The notes beneath the pieces were generated by a model, which worked only from the letters and a program-made list of their open reading frames with translations, did not search any database and was not told the origin of the DNA. From NCBI GenBank assembly GCA_045805985.1, contig JBJMKA010000015.1, forward strand, positions 31,843-95,842: DNA of 64,000 bases, in the 5' to 3' direction. Position numbers and translations under genes: made by a program. Of this stretch, positions 2,510 through 41,748 are shown piece after piece. Source of the stretch: Gaiellaceae bacterium. GTDB taxonomy: Bacteria > Actinomycetota > Thermoleophilia > Gaiellales > Gaiellaceae. Within the stretch, counting starts at the first letter, position 1, and the number at the start of each line of letters is the position of its first letter.

Positions 2510-4162
2510 CTAGCTCCCGGCGGTGTCCGGGTCCGTGTCCATGAACGGGTACCGGTAGTTCTTGGGCGGGATGAACGTCTCCTTGATCGTGCGGGGGCTG
2601 ACCCAGCGGATCACGTTCCACATCGAGCCGGCCTTGTCGTTCGTCCCCGAGGCGCGCGCGCCGCCGAACGGCTGCTGGCCCACCACGGCACCTGTCGGCT
2701 TGTCGTTCACGTAGAAGTTGCCCGCCGCATAGCGGAGCTTGTCGCGCGCATCGTCGATCGCGGCGCGGTCCTCGGAGAAGACGGCGCCCGTGAGCCCATA
2801 GGGCGCGGTGCTGTCGACGAGCGCGAGCGTCTCGTCCCACTTGCTTTCGTCGTAGACGTAGGTGGTGACGACCGGCCCGAAGAGCTCGTCGCGCATCGTG
2901 CGGAAGCCGGGATCGCTCGTCTCGATCACCGTGGGCTCGACGAAGTAGCCGTGCGAGTCGTCGTAGCCGCCGCCGACGACGATGTCGGCGGCCGCGCTTG
3001 CCTTCGCCTCCTCGATCGCCTCGGCCTGTGTGCGGAAGGACGAGCTGTCGATCACGGCACCCATGAAGTTCCCGAAGTCGGAGACGTCCCCCATCTTGAT
3101 TGTCGCCACCTCTTCCTGAAGCCGTTCGCGCAGCGCCGGCCAGAGGTTCGACGGCGCGTAGACGCGCGAAGACGCCGAGCACTTCTGTCCCTGGTACTCG
3201 AACGAGCCGCGCACAATCGCCGTGGCGAGCGCGTCGACATCTGCCGACGGGTGCGCGACGATGAAGTCCTTGCCGCCCGTCTCGCCGACGATGCGCGGGT
3301 AGTTGCGGTATCGCTCCATGTTCGACGCGACCGTGCGCCACATCGAGTTGAAGACCGGGGTGGAGCCGGTGAAGTGGATGCCCGCGAGGTGCGGGCTGGA
3401 GAGGGCCGCGTCGCCGATCGTCGCGCCCGATCCGTAGACGAGGTTGATCACCCCGTCCGGTAGACCGGCCTCCTGGAAGAGGCGCATCAAGTAGTAGGCG
3501 GAGAGCATCGCCGTGCCCGCCGGCTTCCAGACGACGACGTTGCCCATCAGCGCCGGCGAGCTCGTCAGGTTCGCGGCGATCGCGGTGAAGTTGAACGGTG
3601 AGACCGCGAAGACGAAGCCTTCGAGCGGACGGTACTCCAGGCGGTTCCAGATTCCGGGCGAAGAGACCGGCTGCTCCGAGTACACGCGGTGCATGAACTC
3701 GACGTTGAAGCGGAAGAAGTCGATCGATTCGCAGGCCGCGTCGATCTCCGCCTGGTGGGCCGTCTTCGACTGGCCGAGCATCGTCGCGGCGTTGAGGGTG
3801 TCGCGCCAAGGCCCTGCGAGCAGCTCGGCCGCGCGCAGCACCACACCCGCGCGCTCCTCCCACGGCCAGCGCGACCAGTCCTCCCAGGCCTTCGCCGCGG
3901 CGTCGATCGCGAGCTGCACGTGCTCGGCGCCGCCCTGGTGGACCTCGGCGAGGACGTGCTCCTTGTCGTGCGGCATCACGGCCGGCTTCGTCTCGCCGGT
4001 GAAGACGTCCTCGCCGCCGATCACGAGTGGGATCTCGGTGCGCTCGTTGCGCATCTGCTCGAGCCGGAGCTGCAGGCGCAGGCGCTCCGGGCTGCCGGGG
4101 GCGTAGTCGTGGATCGGCTCGTTGTGGGCGGGCGGGGGACGGAGGATCGCGTGGGTGCTCAT
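2510..4162 (-). CDS. pruA: L-glutamate gamma-semialdehyde (1-pyrroline-5-carboxylate) dehydrogenase
   Basis: ORF 2510..4744 trimmed to ATG 4162 (MSTHAILRPP). Aldehyde dehydrogenase motifs VGETGGKD and EYQGQKCSA. About 550 aa, typical of PruA. The upstream 190 codons are Arg/Gly-rich junk. Confidence 0.9.
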   Translation of the reverse strand: MSTHAILRPPPAHNEPIHDYAPGSPERLRLQLRLEQMRNERTEIPLVIGGEDVFTGETKPAVMPHDKEHVLAEVHQGGAEHVQLAIDAAAKAWEDWSRWPWEERAGVVLRAAELLAGPWRDTLNAATMLGQSKTAHQAEIDAACESIDFFRFNVEFMHRVYSEQPVSSPGIWNRLEYRPLEGFVFAVSPFNFTAIAANLTSSPALMGNVVVWKPAGTAMLSAYYLMRLFQEAGLPDGVINLVYGSGATIGDAALSSPHLAGIHFTGSTPVFNSMWRTVASNMERYRNYPRIVGETGGKDFIVAHPSADVDALATAIVRGSFEYQGQKCSASSRVYAPSNLWPALRERLQEEVATIKMGDVSDFGNFMGAVIDSSSFRTQAEAIEEAKASAAADIVVGGGYDDSHGYFVEPTVIETSDPGFRTMRDELFGPVVTTYVYDESKWDETLALVDSTAPYGLTGAVFSEDRAAIDDARDKLRYAAGNFYVNDKPTGAVVGQQPFGGARASGTNDKAGSMWNVIRWVSPRTIKETFIPPKNYRYPFMDTDPDTAGS

Positions 4163-16727: not shown

Positions 16728-17750
16728 ATGAAGGGCGACGGGTTCACACGCCGCGAAGTCGCGATCCTGGTAGCCGCCGTCATCGTCGTCTTCACCGGCG
16801 GCACCCTCGGGTTCATGAGCTTCCTGGGGGAGTCCTGGCACGAGGCCCTCTACCGCACGATCGTCACCGCCTCCCTCACGGGCCTCGACTCGACGCCTCA
16901 CGGCCTGAAGGCCGAGCTGCTGACGATCGCGATCGTCCTCTCCGGCGTGGCTATCTTTGGCTACTTCGCCGCGCAGATCTTCGATTCGATCGCGCACAGC
17001 GTCATGGGCGGGGCCTGGAGGGAGAAGAAACGCCGCAAGATGATCGACGAGCTTCGCAATCACATCATCGTCTGCGGCTACGGCCGGGTCGGCCGGCGCG
17101 CGGGGGAGGAGCTGCGCGAGGCCGGAGTCCCATACGTCGTGCTCGACTTCGGCGAGGAGGCGCTCGAGCATGCGCGGGAGGACGACGTGCTGTTCGTCGA
17201 CGGCAGCGGCTCGGAGGACGAGGACCTCGTCAAGGCGGGAATCGATCGCGCGCGCGGCATCCTCGTGGCCTCCGACGACGACGGCGACAACCTCTACATC
17301 ACGCTGTCGGTCAAGGCTCGCCGCCCGGACCTGATCGTCATCGCGCGGGGCTCGAGCGAGGAGGCGGAGCGCAAGCTGAAGCTCGCGGGCGCCGACCGCG
17401 TCGTCACGCCGTACACGACGGCCGGTCGCGTGATGGCCCAGCTGATGATCAAGCCGCAGGTCACGTCGTTCGTGAACGCGATGACATCGTCGGAGGCGCC
17501 CGACCTGAACTTCGAGGAGATCGAGGTCACCTCGAGCTCCGGCGCCGCGGGCCGGACGATCGGCGCGCTCAACATCTCGTCGCAGACAGGCGCGAACATC
17601 GTCGCCGTACGCAAGCTTGGCGGCGCGCTCGAACTGCGCCCGACGAAGGAGACGCTGCTCGAGGAATCGGACGTGATCGTCGGGCTCGGCTCGCCCGCCG
17701 AGATCAGAAAGCTCGAAAAGATGTTCGAGCCGCGGGATCTTCTTGGGTAG
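16728..17750 (+). CDS. Two-TM ion channel with RCK (TrkA-N/TrkA-C) domains and a non-canonical pore
   Basis: N-terminal TM-pore-TM. Rossmann motif IIVCGYGRVGRR. C-terminal TrkA-C domain. Filter position reads TASLTGLDS instead of TVGYGD. Confidence 0.85.
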   Translation: MKGDGFTRREVAILVAAVIVVFTGGTLGFMSFLGESWHEALYRTIVTASLTGLDSTPHGLKAELLTIAIVLSGVAIFGYFAAQIFDSIAHSVMGGAWREKKRRKMIDELRNHIIVCGYGRVGRRAGEELREAGVPYVVLDFGEEALEHAREDDVLFVDGSGSEDEDLVKAGIDRARGILVASDDDGDNLYITLSVKARRPDLIVIARGSSEEAERKLKLAGADRVVTPYTTAGRVMAQLMIKPQVTSFVNAMTSSEAPDLNFEEIEVTSSSGAAGRTIGALNISSQTGANIVAVRKLGGALELRPTKETLLEESDVIVGLGSPAEIRKLEKMFEPRDLLG

Positions 17751-19254
17751 CGCTGTCGAGCGCCTCGCGGCACGCGTCGGCGAGGCCGTGGGCGCGGACG
17801 TCGAGCTCGAGCGGCCGAAGGATCCGGCGCACGGCGACTTCGCTACGAACGTCGCGATGCGCTCGGCCAAGGCGATCGGACGGTCGCCGCGCGAGTTCGC
17901 GCAGGAGCTCGCGGAGAAGGTCATCGAGCTCGACGAGATCGAGTCGGCTGACGTGGCCGGCCCGGGATTCCTCAACCTGCGCGTCGCTGACCGCTTCTTC
18001 CTCGACGCGCTCGCCGAGGTCGACGAGAGCTACGGCGGCGGCTGGGCGGAGACCCCGGAGCGCGTGCAGGTCGAGATGGTCTCCGCGAACCCGACGGGCC
18101 CGATCGTCGTCTCGGCCGCGCGCAACGGCGCGTACGGCGACTCGGTCGCGCGGCTACTCGAGTTCGCCGGCCACGACGTGTCGCGCGAGTACTACTACAA
18201 CGACGCGGGCCGTCAGATCGACCTCTTCCGCGCGTCCGTCGCTGCGCTGAGGCGCGGTGAGGAGTTGCCCGAGGAGGGGTACAAGGGCGACTATGTCGTC
18301 GAGCTCGCGCAGCTCGAGGGCGATCCGGTTCCGCGCATGCTCGCCTCGATCGAGCGGACGATGGAGCGCTTCCGGATTCATTTCGACAGCTGGGCGCTAC
18401 AGAGCGAGCTCGAGCAGCGCCTCCCCGAGTTCCTGCCGCGGCTCGATACCTACGAGAAGGACGGCGCGCTCTGGGCACGCTCGTCGGCGTACGGCGACGA
18501 CGCCGACTGGGTGATCATCCGCTCGGCCGAGAAGGGCGGCACGCCGACGTATCGCGCGGGCGACATCGTCTACCTGGTCGACAAGCTCGAGCGCGGCCTC
18601 GATCGCGCAATGTACGTGCTCGGCGCCGATCACCACGCGACCGCCAAGTGGTACAAGGCGATCGCGCGGATGCTCGGCTACGACGAGTCGCGCATCGAGG
18701 TGCTGCTCTACCAATTCGTGCACCTGTTGCGGAGCGGTGAGAGTGCGAAGGCGTCAAAGCGCTCCGGCAATGTCTTCCTCCTCGACGACTTCATTGACGA
18801 GGTCGGCGTGGACGCGGCGCGGTGGTACCTCGTCAACCGCGGGCCGGACCAGACGATTGAGATCGACCTCGACCTCGCGGCCGAGAAGTCGCCGAAGAAT
18901 CCGGTGTACTACGTGCAGTACGCGCACGCGCGCATTGCGTCGATCCTGCGTAGCGCGGGCGGTCTGGAGATCGGGGGCCCGCCGCCGGGCCCGCTCGCGA
19001 CGGAGGAGAAGGAGCTGATCAAGCGGCTGACGGACTTCCCGGCGACGGTCCGTGAAGCGACCGAGCGCCGCGGTCCGCAGCTGCTTCCGTCGTATGCGAT
19101 CAGGCTCGCCGACGATTTCCATCGCTTCTACCACGAGCGCCGCGTCCTCGGCGAGCCCGAGCAGGCGTTCCGCCTCGGCCTGATCCGCAAGACGCAGGTC
19201 GTGATCGCGCGCTCGCTCGACCTGATCGGGGTCGAAGCGCCCGAGTCGATGTGA
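17743..19254 (+). CDS. argS: Arginine--tRNA ligase (compact, HIGH histidines absent)
   Basis: N-terminal Arg-tRNA-synthetase domain, SANPTGP segment, DALR anticodon-binding domain (YYVQYAHARIASILR), terminal Met. TTG start overlaps the channel gene's stop. Confidence 0.9.
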   Translation: MGSAVERLAARVGEAVGADVELERPKDPAHGDFATNVAMRSAKAIGRSPREFAQELAEKVIELDEIESADVAGPGFLNLRVADRFFLDALAEVDESYGGGWAETPERVQVEMVSANPTGPIVVSAARNGAYGDSVARLLEFAGHDVSREYYYNDAGRQIDLFRASVAALRRGEELPEEGYKGDYVVELAQLEGDPVPRMLASIERTMERFRIHFDSWALQSELEQRLPEFLPRLDTYEKDGALWARSSAYGDDADWVIIRSAEKGGTPTYRAGDIVYLVDKLERGLDRAMYVLGADHHATAKWYKAIARMLGYDESRIEVLLYQFVHLLRSGESAKASKRSGNVFLLDDFIDEVGVDAARWYLVNRGPDQTIEIDLDLAAEKSPKNPVYYVQYAHARIASILRSAGGLEIGGPPPGPLATEEKELIKRLTDFPATVREATERRGPQLLPSYAIRLADDFHRFYHERRVLGEPEQAFRLGLIRKTQVVIARSLDLIGVEAPESM

Positions 19255-19266
19255 AAGCAAGCTCCT

Positions 19267-19463
19267 GAACCTGGTTCGGCCTGCACGCCACGGGCGACCC
19301 GGCTGTGACGGGCACTGCCGAATCAGGTTCGGCCTCGAGTCGGAACCTGATTCGCGCAACCAGCGACAGACCTCACCGCCGAATGCGGCGCGCGCGAACC
19401 AGGTTCGTGAGTTCCGGTCGCCCAGCGCAAACTCCTGAACCTGGCGCCCCGAATCAGGTTCAG
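19267..19463. repeat. Array of six GAACCWGGTTC-type dyads with alternative helices (argS-glpX spacer)
   Basis: Copies at 19267, 19320, 19343, 19396, 19437 and 19451. Helices: 19267-19280/19317-19330, 19319-19331/19341-19354, 19435-19443/19455-19463. Confidence 0.85.
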
Positions 19464-19500
19464 TCTCGAAGCGCGCCGCTGAACTCTAGGATCAGTCCCG

Positions 19501-20484
19501 GTGAGCACGCCCCGCCCCGACCGCAACCTCGCTCTCGAGCTCGTCCGCGTCACCGAAGCCGCCGCCATGGGCGCCGGCCGCTGGATCGGCCGCGGCGACA
19601 GGAACGCCGCCGACCAGGCGGCCGTCGATGCGATGCGCGCGATGCTCGACACCGTTGTCATGGACGGGGTCGTCGTGATCGGCGAAGGGGAGAAGGACGA
19701 GGCACCAATGCTCTACAACGGCGAGCACATAGGTGCGGGCGGGCCCGAAGTCGACGTCGCTGTCGACCCGCTGGAGGGCACGCGGCTGGCGGCGCTCGGC
19801 CAGCCGAACGCGATTGCTGTGATCGCCGCCGCAGAGCGCGGGTCGATGTTCTTTCCCGGCGGGGCGTTCTACATGGAGAAGATCGCCGCCGGCGCAGATG
19901 CGATCGACGCGATCGACATCAACGCAACGCCCACCGAGAACGTGAACGCGGTCGCGAAGGCGAAGGGCCGGCGGGTGACTGACATTCGCGTCGTCGTGCT
20001 GGAGCGCGAGCGGCACGAGCAGCTGATCGGGGAGCTGCGCCAGGCGGGCGCCCGTGTCAACCTGATCAGGGACGGGGACGTCGCTCCGGCAATCGCGGCC
20101 GCGCGTCCCGAAACGGGTGTCGACCTGCTGTACGGCATCGGCGGCACGCCCGAGGGCGTGATCTCGGCGGCCGCGCTCAAGTGCGTCGGCGGCGGCATTC
20201 AGGGCAAGCTCTGGCCGCGCAACGACGAGGAGCGGCAGGCATTGATCGACACGGGCTACGACCTCGACCGCGTCCTGATGACCGAGGACCTCGTGCAGAG
20301 CGACAACGTCTTCGTCTCCGCGACCGGTGTCACAACCGGGGCGCTTCTACGCGGGATTCGCTATGTCAATGACGGCGCGATCACCGATTCGATCGTCATG
20401 CGCTCTCGCTCCGGCACAGTTCGCCGGATCGAGGCGCGCCACAAACTGAGCAAGCTGACGCATTTCACCGGAAGGGAGTACTGA
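19501..20484 (+). CDS. glpX: Class II fructose-1,6-bisphosphatase
   Basis: Full-length GlpX similarity ([30 protein letters not shown]). GTG start. Confidence 0.93.
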
Positions 20485-40474: not shown

Positions 40475-40483
40475 GTCCCGGGG

Positions 40484-40547
40484 AACCTGGTTGGCGCTAC
40501 CTGCGGCGTTGGGCCTCAGGGATAGACGTTCGCGCCGCAACCAGGTT
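40484..40547 (+). other. 64-nt hairpin element sharing the AACCTGGTT base with the 19.3-kb dyads
   Basis: AACCTGGTTGGCGC (40484-97) pairs with GCGCCGCAACCAGGTT (40532-47): 10 bp, a 2-nt bulge, then 4 bp. 34-nt loop. Followed by TGTGCGTT. Confidence 0.6.
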
Positions 40548-40587
40548 TGTGCGTTAGACCGCGCTTGTGCCAGGCACAATCTGACGC

Positions 40588-41748
40588 ATGAGCCGGATCT
40601 TGCTTGGCGTCTCCGGAGGTATCGCGGCCTACAAGGCCTGCGAACTGACGCGCCTGCTCGTCAAGGCGGGGCACGACGTGGTTCCGCTCGTCACGCCCGG
40701 GGCGCAGCGGTTCGTGACCGAGGAGACGTTCCTCGCACTCGCCCGGCGTCCGAAGAACGAGGACCTCTACCCGCACCTGACCCGGGCCGACCTCCTGGTC
40801 GTGGCGCCGTGCACGGCGAACACGCTGGCGAAGCTGGCGCACGGGATCGCCGACAACGTCCTCACCGAGGCGGCGCTCGCCCACCGTGGGCCGATGCTCG
40901 TCGCGCCCGCGATGAACCCGCGCATGTGGATGCACCCGGCCACGCGCGCGAACGTGGAGACGCTGCGCGCGCGCGGCGTCGAACTCGTCGGCCCGGACGA
41001 GGGCGAGCTGGCGGAGGGCGAGTGGGGGGTGGGGCGGCTCGCAGAGCCCGCCGAGATCGCCGCCCGGGCCGAGCAGCTGCTCGCGCCCGGCTCCCTCGCC
41101 GGCCGGCGCATCCTGATCACCGCCGGGGGCACACGCGAACCGGTCGACAGCGTGCGGTTCGTCGGGAACCGCTCATCGGGCCGCATGGGAGTCGCGCTTG
41201 CCGAAGAGGCTCAGCGCCGCGGCGCCGAGGTGATCGTGCTCGCCGCGAACCTCGCCGTCGACGTTCCTTTCGGGATCGAAGCGATCCCGACGCCGACGGC
41301 CGAGTCGATGCGGGACGCGGCGCTCGCGCTGCCGGACGTCGACGTCCTGCTGCTCGCAGCCGCCGTCGCCGACTATCGCCCGGCGGAGGCCCTCGCGGGC
41401 AAGCGCTCGAAGAGCGACCAGAGCTGGACACTGGAGCTGCAGCCGACCGACGACATCGCGAAGGCCCTCGGCGAGCGCAAGCGCGCCGGCCAGGTGCTGG
41501 TCGCGTTCGGCGCCGACCACGGCGCGGAGGGACTGGAACGGAAGCGCGCGATGCTCGAGACGAAGAACGCCGACCTCGTCGTCTTCAACGACGTCAGCCG
41601 TTCGGACATCGGCTTCGACAGCACGGAGAACGAAGTCGTGCTGGTCGCACGGGACGGCGAGCGTACGGTGCCGAGGGCCGCGAAGGCAGCGATCGCCTCG
41701 GCGATCCTGGACGAGGTCGAGAGGCTGCTCCCTTCATCAAGCCTCTAG
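40588..41748 (+). CDS. coaBC: Bifunctional phosphopantothenoylcysteine decarboxylase / synthetase
   Basis: Flavoprotein N-domain (LLGVSGGIAAYK, PAMNPRMW) and DFP C-domain (ITAGGTREPVDSVRFVGNRSSG). Confidence 0.93.
   Translation: MSRILLGVSGGIAAYKACELTRLLVKAGHDVVPLVTPGAQRFVTEETFLALARRPKNEDLYPHLTRADLLVVAPCTANTLAKLAHGIADNVLTEAALAHRGPMLVAPAMNPRMWMHPATRANVETLRARGVELVGPDEGELAEGEWGVGRLAEPAEIAARAEQLLAPGSLAGRRILITAGGTREPVDSVRFVGNRSSGRMGVALAEEAQRRGAEVIVLAANLAVDVPFGIEAIPTPTAESMRDAALALPDVDVLLLAAAVADYRPAEALAGKRSKSDQSWTLELQPTDDIAKALGERKRAGQVLVAFGADHGAEGLERKRAMLETKNADLVVFNDVSRSDIGFDSTENEVVLVARDGERTVPRAAKAAIASAILDEVERLLPSSSL

Follow-up and report, generated by a model that had tools for sequence, protein, structure and literature searches.

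Palindromic hairpins between argS and glpX in a Gaiellaceae genome are very probably copies of a REP/REPIN-type repeat family linked to RAYT-like transposase genes

Introduction

Does a dense array of palindromes lying directly upstream of a gluconeogenic gene control that gene, or is it repeat DNA that has come to rest there? The question is raised by a 64-kb stretch of a Gaiellaceae genome (hereafter the window), in which the 246-nt spacer between argS and glpX (positions 19255-19500) carries six dyads of the type GAACCWGGTTC. The arginyl-tRNA synthetase gene argS (17743-19254; Pfam DALR_1, Arg_tRNA_synt_N and tRNA-synt_1d) ends just before this spacer, which is followed by the class II fructose-bisphosphatase gene glpX (19501-20484) and then by a DUF2090 gene. 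The original prediction for this locus offered three options: a cis-regulatory leader RNA, an operator array for a dimeric DNA-binding protein, or a nest of small hairpins resembling repetitive extragenic palindromes (REPs) or miniature inverted-repeat transposable elements (MITEs). In this work, we analyzed the anatomy of the array, its occurrence in related genomes, the genes that accompany it and the argS-glpX junction in relatives. Our results indicate that the array very probably consists of three copies of a REP/REPIN-type repeat family of Gaiellaceae-like Thermoleophilia, members of which adjoin genes for a predicted REP-associated tyrosine transposase (RAYT) in related genomes, and they do not support the view that the array is a conserved control element of glpX.

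Results

Three tagged hairpin units in the argS-glpX spacer

The six dyads are three units of one repeat family, each laid out as a 5' tag (consensus GAAACTC), 2 nt, an arm GAACCTGGTTC, a loop and an arm GAAYCAGGTTC. This architecture was derived from the units found in related genomes, and it includes an asymmetric tag beside each hairpin that had previously been overlooked. The repeats of the window are the following.

19258-19332, plus strand: REP-like unit 1, with a long loop, recognized by inverted-repeat pairing (stem 19265-19332 in the minimum-free-energy fold); tag CAAGCTC at 19258-19264 (5/7 matches to GAAACTC), 2 nt, arm GAACCTGGTTC at 19267-19277, G+C-rich 42-nt loop at 19278-19319, arm GAATCAGGTTC at 19320-19330.
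19341-19415, minus strand: REP-like unit 2, an inverted unit 1, recognized by the inverted repeat and by a homologous copy in locus L046 of a relative; arm GAACCTGATTC at 19343-19353, 42-nt loop at 19354-19395, arm GAACCAGGTTC at 19396-19406 and, on the other strand and 2 nt past the arm, the tag (GAGTTCC at 19409-19415, that is, GGAACTC, 6/7).
19258-19415, no strand assigned: REPIN-like inverted doublet formed by units 1 and 2, with the layout seen in loci L022 and L043 and a homologue in L046.
19428-19463, plus strand: REP-like unit 3, short and degenerate; tag CAAACTC at 19428-19434 (6/7), arm GAACCTGGcgC at 19437-19447, 3 nt, arm GAATCAGGTTC at 19451-19461; hairpin 19435-19443/19455-19463.
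40483-40557, minus strand: sister copy, a single long-loop unit in the rpoZ-coaBC spacer; arms GAACCTGGTTG at 40483-40493 and CAACCAGGTTT at 40538-40548, with a weak tag on the other strand (40551-40557, CTAACGC, 4/7).

The doublet reads tag-arm-loop-arm-12 nt-arm-loop-arm-tag' and can be folded either as two hairpins or as one long one, in which arm 1 pairs with arm 4 and arm 2 with arm 3. Tags of the TAAC type, as in the sister copy, also occur in loci L021 and L042 of relatives. Directly after the sister repeat, positions 40549-40589 hold a second, unrelated stem-loop (GUGCGUUAGA...UCUGACGCAU) that ends at the coaBC start codon.

The pattern GAAYCWGRTTC matches five times in the spacer (19267, 19320, 19343, 19396 and 19451), and the degenerate sixth dyad, GAACCTGGCGC at 19437, deviates from it at two positions. 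With an expectation of 0.05 matches for the entire window, and with none of 100 dinucleotide shuffles of it giving five, the density of dyads is indeed beyond chance, as had been claimed. The pattern AACCWGGTT occurs four times in the window, twice in the argS-glpX spacer and twice as the arms of the rpoZ-coaBC hairpin (40484 and 40539); the latter is the sister hairpin predicted near 40484-40547, which we recovered with arms spanning 40483-40548. We also agree that the N3 spacing of the dyad is not that of LexA (GAAC-N4-GTTC), a candidate ruled out by this spacing together with a distribution unlike that of a regulon.

All the pairings described for the spacer were likewise found: 19267-19280 with 19317-19330 (14 nt, 93% complementary, 36 nt between the arms), 19319-19336 with 19337-19354 (18 nt, 89%), 19435-19443 with 19455-19463 (9 nt, 100%) and 19262-19278 with 19395-19411 (17 nt, 88%). 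One further pairing that had gone unnoticed, 19343-19357 with 19392-19406 (15 nt, 93%), shows that the second unit repeats the first in inverse orientation. On both strands the predicted fold of the spacer is more stable than those of its shuffles, with -113.7 kcal/mol and a z-score of -4.8 for the sense-strand RNA and a z-score of -3.9 for the other strand. The minimum-free-energy structure joins arms 3 and 6 as well as arms 4 and 5, and the first stem begins at 19265, about 10 nt past the argS stop codon. Each arm is palindromic apart from its central W (A or T), and any arm can pair with any other. The helices are thus mutually exclusive, as originally proposed, but this exclusivity is an automatic result of arms that are near-identical palindromes.

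A structured leader RNA of the glpX/DUF2090 operon, acting as a riboswitch or attenuator with switching helices, would build on these very properties, namely the mutually exclusive helices, the stable fold and the position of the array, which follows the upstream gene and precedes the start of glpX. Against it, the alternative helices follow from the repetition of palindromic arms, and an Rfam scan of positions 18800-19900 returned no match even at E ≤ 1. Within 19000-19700, scans with tools possibly unsuited to this phylum detected neither an intrinsic, U-tract terminator nor a sigma-70-like promoter; the stems continue into GNGAGUUYC rather than into a run of U.

The repeat family in related genomes

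The relatives of GlpX place the source genome among the Gaiellaceae-like Thermoleophilia of soil metagenomes. A genome scan with one genome per species and a 22-base gapped pattern, GAACCTGGTTC-N30-56-GAAYCAGGTTC, yielded 66 loci, of which about 42 came from metagenome-assembled genomes (MAGs) of Thermoleophilia/Gaiellaceae, with up to six per MAG. Even with so strict a pattern several loci per MAG were obtained in relatives, and extra clusters lay within the 8-kb loci retrieved. The basic unit in these genomes is GAAACTC-NN-GAACCTGGTTC-(6-13 nt)-GAACCAGGTTC, which occurs singly, in inverted doublets bounded by GAAACTC...GAGTTTC, or in runs of up to 12 arms. Inverted doublets like that of the window are present in L010, L022, L042, L043 and L057, and those of L022 and L043 match its layout down to the C-to-T variant in the inner arms. 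Among 94 Thermoleophilia units the gap between arms was 7 nt in 37, 9 nt in 18 and 37-45 nt in nine, and the long loops of these nine resemble those of the window copies.

Two further regularities characterize the family. A GAAACTC-like tag is found at positions -9 to -3 in 75 of 93 units, compared with 1% by chance, and it is one-sided in 71 of the 75. In addition, adjacent arms separated by a short gap show a marked polarity in their central bases (T..A in 84 cases, A..T in 15, and the non-complementary T..T or A..A in 15), with complementary centres in 99 of 117 short-gap pairs. The clusters lie mostly outside open reading frames (ORFs) of high third-position G+C content; by a manual tally, about 23 are in spacers between tandem genes, 11 between convergent and 4 between divergent ones, and the neighbouring genes are functionally unrelated. 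In loci of close relatives that were not selected by the repeat, we counted 0-2 clusters per 21 kb. The literature searched contained no account of the family or of its motif, and the motif strings matched unrelated papers only.

These properties bear on the possibility of an operator array, that is, of a dimeric regulator that binds GAACC-N-GGTTC and controls glpX together with other genes. Six sites directly upstream of a gluconeogenic gene would suit such a regulator, each arm is itself a dyad, and the symmetry of the dyad is kept by compensatory change (GAACTWAGTTC in locus L158, described below) that hairpin pairing alone would not need. Nevertheless, an operator is contradicted by the one-sided tag in 81% of the units, by the strong T..A polarity at short spacing, by the greater number of clusters in convergent than in divergent spacers, by neighbouring genes that are unrelated and by linkage to a transposase gene instead of a regulator gene. 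As the motif is also missing upstream of glpX in all the relatives examined, we consider this explanation very improbable. Integron attC sites, which combine conserved arms with variable centres, were considered as well and rejected: neither cassettes nor an integrase are present, and the repeats lie beside housekeeping genes and have a different tag and different arms.

A RAYT-like gene beside the repeats

In loci L011 and L051, where the ORFs between clusters were read, two repeat clusters enclose an ORF of 156-165 amino acids. The units upstream of it read hairpin-GAGTTTC and the unit downstream reads GAAACTC-hairpin, so that the repeats on its two sides are inverted relative to each other and face it. 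By tblastn and hidden Markov model (HMM) searches, RAYT-like genes adjoin repeats in six loci (L051, L011, L038, L023, L042 and L036). The association was also examined in reverse, by taking RAYT homologues without regard to repeats and then inspecting their flanks. Tagged hairpins of the same build were found around the homologues of L157 and L158, with variant arms: GAATCTGATTC and GACTCTGGTTC in L157:2880-3000, and GAACTWAGTTC in L158:2880-3520. Such a change of CC..GG to CT..AG, which needs four coordinated substitutions per hairpin, keeps the arm self-palindromic.

The MAG that contains L051 (GCA_035652835.1) encodes a second RAYT paralogue, in L154-L156. The two proteins (L154:3001-3429 and L051:5770-6267) are 73% identical, and each gene has its own hairpin: that of L051 is of the GAACCWGGTTC type, and that of L154 is GAAACTGTTTGGTG...CACCAAACAGTTTC, a repeat that also holds a W-centred palindrome, AAAC-W-GTTT. 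The same correspondence, in which each RAYT paralogue has a repeat type of its own, has been published for REP systems (PMC6006769, PMC5581495).

Some additional features of these genes were observed. Their 3' ends run into the downstream repeat (L011:6483-6953, L051 and homologues), and many homologues end in ETREPGS, encoded by GAAACTCGCGAACCTGGTTC of the repeat. In L157, L158, L038, L042 and L023 the gene occupies the same chromosomal place, preceded by an Abhydrolase_2 gene and followed by an acetyltransferase gene encoded on the opposite strand, a position that fits vertical inheritance of a single-copy gene. The homologue in L042 (L042:3275-3729) is split over two reading frames while still being flanked by repeats, and is probably a pseudogene.

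With regard to the protein, the ORF of L051 matches Pfam Y1_Tnp with 29.4 bits (cutoff 23). It has 166 homologues at E ≤ 1e-5, assigned by NCBI to Gaiellaceae, and many of them are labelled "REP element-mobilizing transposase RayT" by JGI. In their alignment, the Tyr of YIAENPP and the second His of THYHLL, which corresponds to the HUH motif, are invariant, and the first His of this motif is retained in at least 90% of the sequences. An AlphaFold (AF2) model of the protein reached a pLDDT of 87.5, and its best fold match in the PDB was 4er8_A, the E. coli RAYT-REP complex (E 1.2e-6, TM 0.62), followed by the transposases of IS608, ISDra2 and IS200; among the matching structures of the IS200/IS605 kind are 2vic, 2a6m and 2xm3. 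Identity to the E. coli enzyme is about 13%, and the kinship is seen only by profile or fold comparison; a tblastn search of all loci with E. coli YafM/RayT gave no significant match. The motifs and the modelled fold, both from the protein of relatives, support the prediction that the repeat-linked ORF is a RAYT-type HUH-Tyr transposase.

Hairpins with GAACCTGGTTC/GAACCAGGTTC arms and different flanks, several in each case, were also encountered in Planctomycetota BC2.32 (L003, L012 and L064), Viridilinea (L033, L052, L063 and L050), Curtobacterium (L024, L031 and L054) and Lachnospiraceae (L006 and L034); no RAYT homologue lies within the 8-kb loci of these four groups. In a MAG of Candidatus Levyibacteriota, an AT-rich member of the candidate phyla radiation, a 235-amino-acid Y1 transposase-like ORF (positions 2816-3523, minus strand, within L035:2794-3599) with the motifs HVH and YIHLNPV has GAACCWGGTTC-containing repeats on both sides, an arrangement which hints that these arms go with a wider RAYT lineage.

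The argS-glpX junction in relatives

Synteny of argS and glpX is widespread. In most relatives, with GlpX proteins 60-83% identical, the spacer measures 11-48 nt and the argS stop codon is the TAG within TAGGATC. The motif was found anywhere in none of 80 metagenome glpX loci and upstream of glpX in none of the 10 closest-relative loci; the array is shared only by the identical contigs L001 and L002. Conservation in orthologous spacers, which the original prediction had chosen beforehand as its own touchstone, is thus lacking for both sequence and pairing.

The junction has a different content in the closest relatives. In eight loci with GlpX 96-97% identical (L079, L101, L149, L151, L153, L159, L161 and L162), a divergent ABC-transporter gene starts about 24 nt upstream of glpX; in the contigs among them that reach argS (L149, L151, L153 and L161), five ABC-transporter genes fill the interval, and L160 holds two such genes and a 30-nt remnant of the divergent one. 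A single unit of the repeat stands just after argS in L153 and L161 and is absent from L149, L151 and L160, a difference that represents gain and loss of the unit. The argS-glpX junction appears as a hot spot of rearrangement, at which the window has either lost the ABC-transporter genes or never had them. A possible TCAC microhomology at the deletion joint would suit a loss of the ABC block, as one tentative step in the path of insertion and deletion at the junction.

The doublet of the window has a homologue, loops included, at L046:7059-7225, where it lies between unrelated genes (nhmmer E 2e-20). The two copies are about 80% identical over some 165 nt by manual count, with a mean column identity of 86%. 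L046 belongs to MAG RYN_240, whose own glpX locus (L159, GlpX 96% identical) is devoid of the repeat. Comparison of these sequences supports mobility or dispersal of the repeat within the lineage. Taken together, the absence of the array from orthologous junctions and the presence of the same doublet at an unrelated site leave both the leader-RNA and the operator readings unsupported. For the leader RNA, with neither sequence nor pairing conserved in any orthologous spacer and the same 160-nt sequence at an unrelated locus, we regard the probability as very small.

A dispersed doublet of about 160 bp, with tag and arm inverted at both ends, could also be taken for a MITE, mobilized by a classical DDE insertion sequence through terminal inverted repeats with target-site duplication, and not dependent on a RAYT. 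Yet no target-site duplication is seen beside the copy of the window or that of L046, the family often takes the form of single units or tandem runs, unlike an element bounded by terminal inverted repeats, and the only transposase beside the repeats is the Y1/HUH enzyme, with no DDE transposase nearby. We regard this origin as very improbable.

One further feature of the spacer lies outside the repeats, downstream of the array, and marks their right-hand limit:

19487-19503, plus strand: TAGGAT (19487-19492), 8 nt and the GTG start codon of glpX (19501), conserved before glpX in relatives.

Nearly all relatives retain this hexamer 6-8 nt ahead of the glpX start codon, irrespective of the sequence that precedes it. 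It may serve as a Shine-Dalgarno site or, in the case of a leaderless glpX mRNA, as the -10 box.

Discussion

Among the options put forward for this locus, that of a nest of REP-like hairpins is the one borne out by our results: the tagged hairpin is dispersed in relatives and flanks a gene of RAYT type, whereas the regulatory options found no counterpart at orthologous glpX loci. We therefore favor the reading of the array as REP/REPIN-type repeats. The family, with its GAAACTC tag and self-palindromic arms, is a new REP-RAYT family within a known kind of system. By analogy with described REP-RAYT systems, the units would be non-autonomous and recognized, hairpin and tag together, as single-stranded DNA; a HUH-Tyr transposase (RAYT), presumably encoded in single copy elsewhere in the source genome, would cut them near the tag and rejoin them in trans (PMC3479197, PMC6006769), bringing copies to new intergenic sites. 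Copies would thus have been inserted downstream of the argS stop codon, at a junction that ancestrally measured 11-48 nt.

Several observations weigh against this reading or narrow it. The window contains only two repeat loci per 64 kb and, by tblastn and HMM search, no RAYT homologue, and a high copy number in the source genome is extrapolated from relatives, whose loci were picked for the statistics via the repeat itself, an ascertainment that biases densities upward. A clean pair of empty and filled sites, or a target duplication, was not found. The tag is not canonical either: no GTAG or GTGG is present at the foot of the hairpins in the window or in relatives, and GAAACTC sits 2 nt from the stem. 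As to the enzyme, its sole NCBIfam match, REP_Tyr_transpos (E 1e-9), scores 38 bits against an equivalog cutoff of 80, and searches of PDB sequences, queried with a single RAYT or with a profile of 27 sequences, gave chance matches only; the clade is therefore remote from the studied enzyme. Finally, the arms stay self-palindromic through coordinated changes among relatives, which pairing of the hairpin alone would not need.

This last point makes it tempting to speculate that hairpins of the GAACCWGGTTC type constitute, next to the GTAG and CGTC classes, a class of REPs of their own that extends across phyla. The coordinated arm changes, the AAAC-W-GTTT palindrome and the Levyibacteriota RAYT-like gene with the same arms hint at such a class, in which either the cognate RAYT clade or a dimeric protein of the host would recognize the self-palindromic arms as a duplex of two-fold symmetry. 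We hold this reading to be rather unlikely.

A REP origin does not preclude a local role, and co-option at this site adds to the REP/REPIN reading rather than competing with it. The likeliest local effect would arise in a transcript that reads through from argS, where the units would form stable hairpins; these could shield the argS mRNA from 3'-5' decay or dampen read-through into glpX. Co-option would make the array an attenuator or decay barrier that uncouples glpX/DUF2090 from argS, or a cause of ribosome stalling at the argS stop codon; a weaker proposal is that the array now tunes argS and glpX expression at this site. Within operons of E. coli, REPs are known to stabilize the mRNA that precedes them, to act as attenuators of transcription and to influence translation close to stop codons. 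The very stable sense-strand fold and a first stem so close to the argS stop speak for a similar role here, and the ancestral abutment of argS and glpX, in which the argS TAG is part of TAGGATC, makes read-through transcription plausible. On the other hand, no U-tract terminator was found, the array is confined to one population (the window, L001 and L002) and so shows no sign of selection, close relatives have ABC-transporter genes in the same place, and glpX retains its own conserved TAGGAT signal 3' of the array. On balance, such a local effect seems unlikely.

These results have consequences for annotation. A non-random dyad array beside a metabolic gene is here attributed to parasitic or commensal repeat DNA, which removes a false regulon lead, and motif-based searches for regulons or riboswitches in Gaiellaceae should mask this repeat family. 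They also document a REP/REPIN-RAYT system in an uncultured lineage of soil Actinomycetota, with a non-canonical tag, self-palindromic arms and paralogue-specific repeat variants. The sequence range of REP-RAYT systems is thereby widened, and tag-plus-hairpin substrates and enzymes (e.g. P0121) become available for biochemistry. At the locus itself, an argS-glpX pair that ancestrally abutted has been pulled apart by insertions and deletions.

How does this family compare with known systems? The REP of E. coli malE-malF lies within an operon and acts on mRNA stability; the array resembles it in placement, as REP hairpins between co-oriented, ancestrally adjacent genes. With the ends of IS200/IS605 elements (the TnpA of IS608 and ISDra2), the family would share, by analogy, subterminal DNA hairpins read in single-stranded form by a Y1 HUH transposase; in contrast to those, the present repeats are not the ends of a multi-copy insertion sequence carrying tnpA/tnpB, and the best structural match of the enzyme is the RAYT (4er8) and not TnpA_IS200. 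With the TIRYT/TIRtron systems and the CGTC-tagged REPs (PMC3733652), it has in common palindromic repeats without GTAG, some of them linked to RAYT-like genes, but its units are short tagged hairpins, unlike the long terminal inverted repeats of those systems, and carry a tag other than CGTC.

The closest comparison is with the REP/BIME/REPIN elements and RAYTs (TnpA_REP) of E. coli and Pseudomonas (PMC3116915, PMC3479197, PMC5581495, PMC6006769). The canonical REP tag is GT[AG]G, 0-2 nt from the stem (PMC6006769, PMC3733652), whereas that of the Gaiellaceae family is GAAACTC, 2 nt from the stem; non-canonical tags have been reported for some RAYT classes (PMC6006769). Further differences are the arm, an 11-nt palindrome that makes the hairpin also a direct repeat of the dyad, the subfamily with structured loops of 37-45 nt, and the host, which belongs to the Thermoleophilia (Actinomycetota) and not to the Proteobacteria. 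In both, the unit is a short hairpin whose foot carries a conserved asymmetric tag, and such units are found outside genes, alone, as inverted doublets or in clusters. Also common to both are a gene for a small, single-domain HUH-Tyr transposase with the same repeats inverted around it (a REPtron, seen here in relatives); a repeat sequence proper to each RAYT paralogue; and a chromosomal position of the RAYT gene that is conserved in several genomes.

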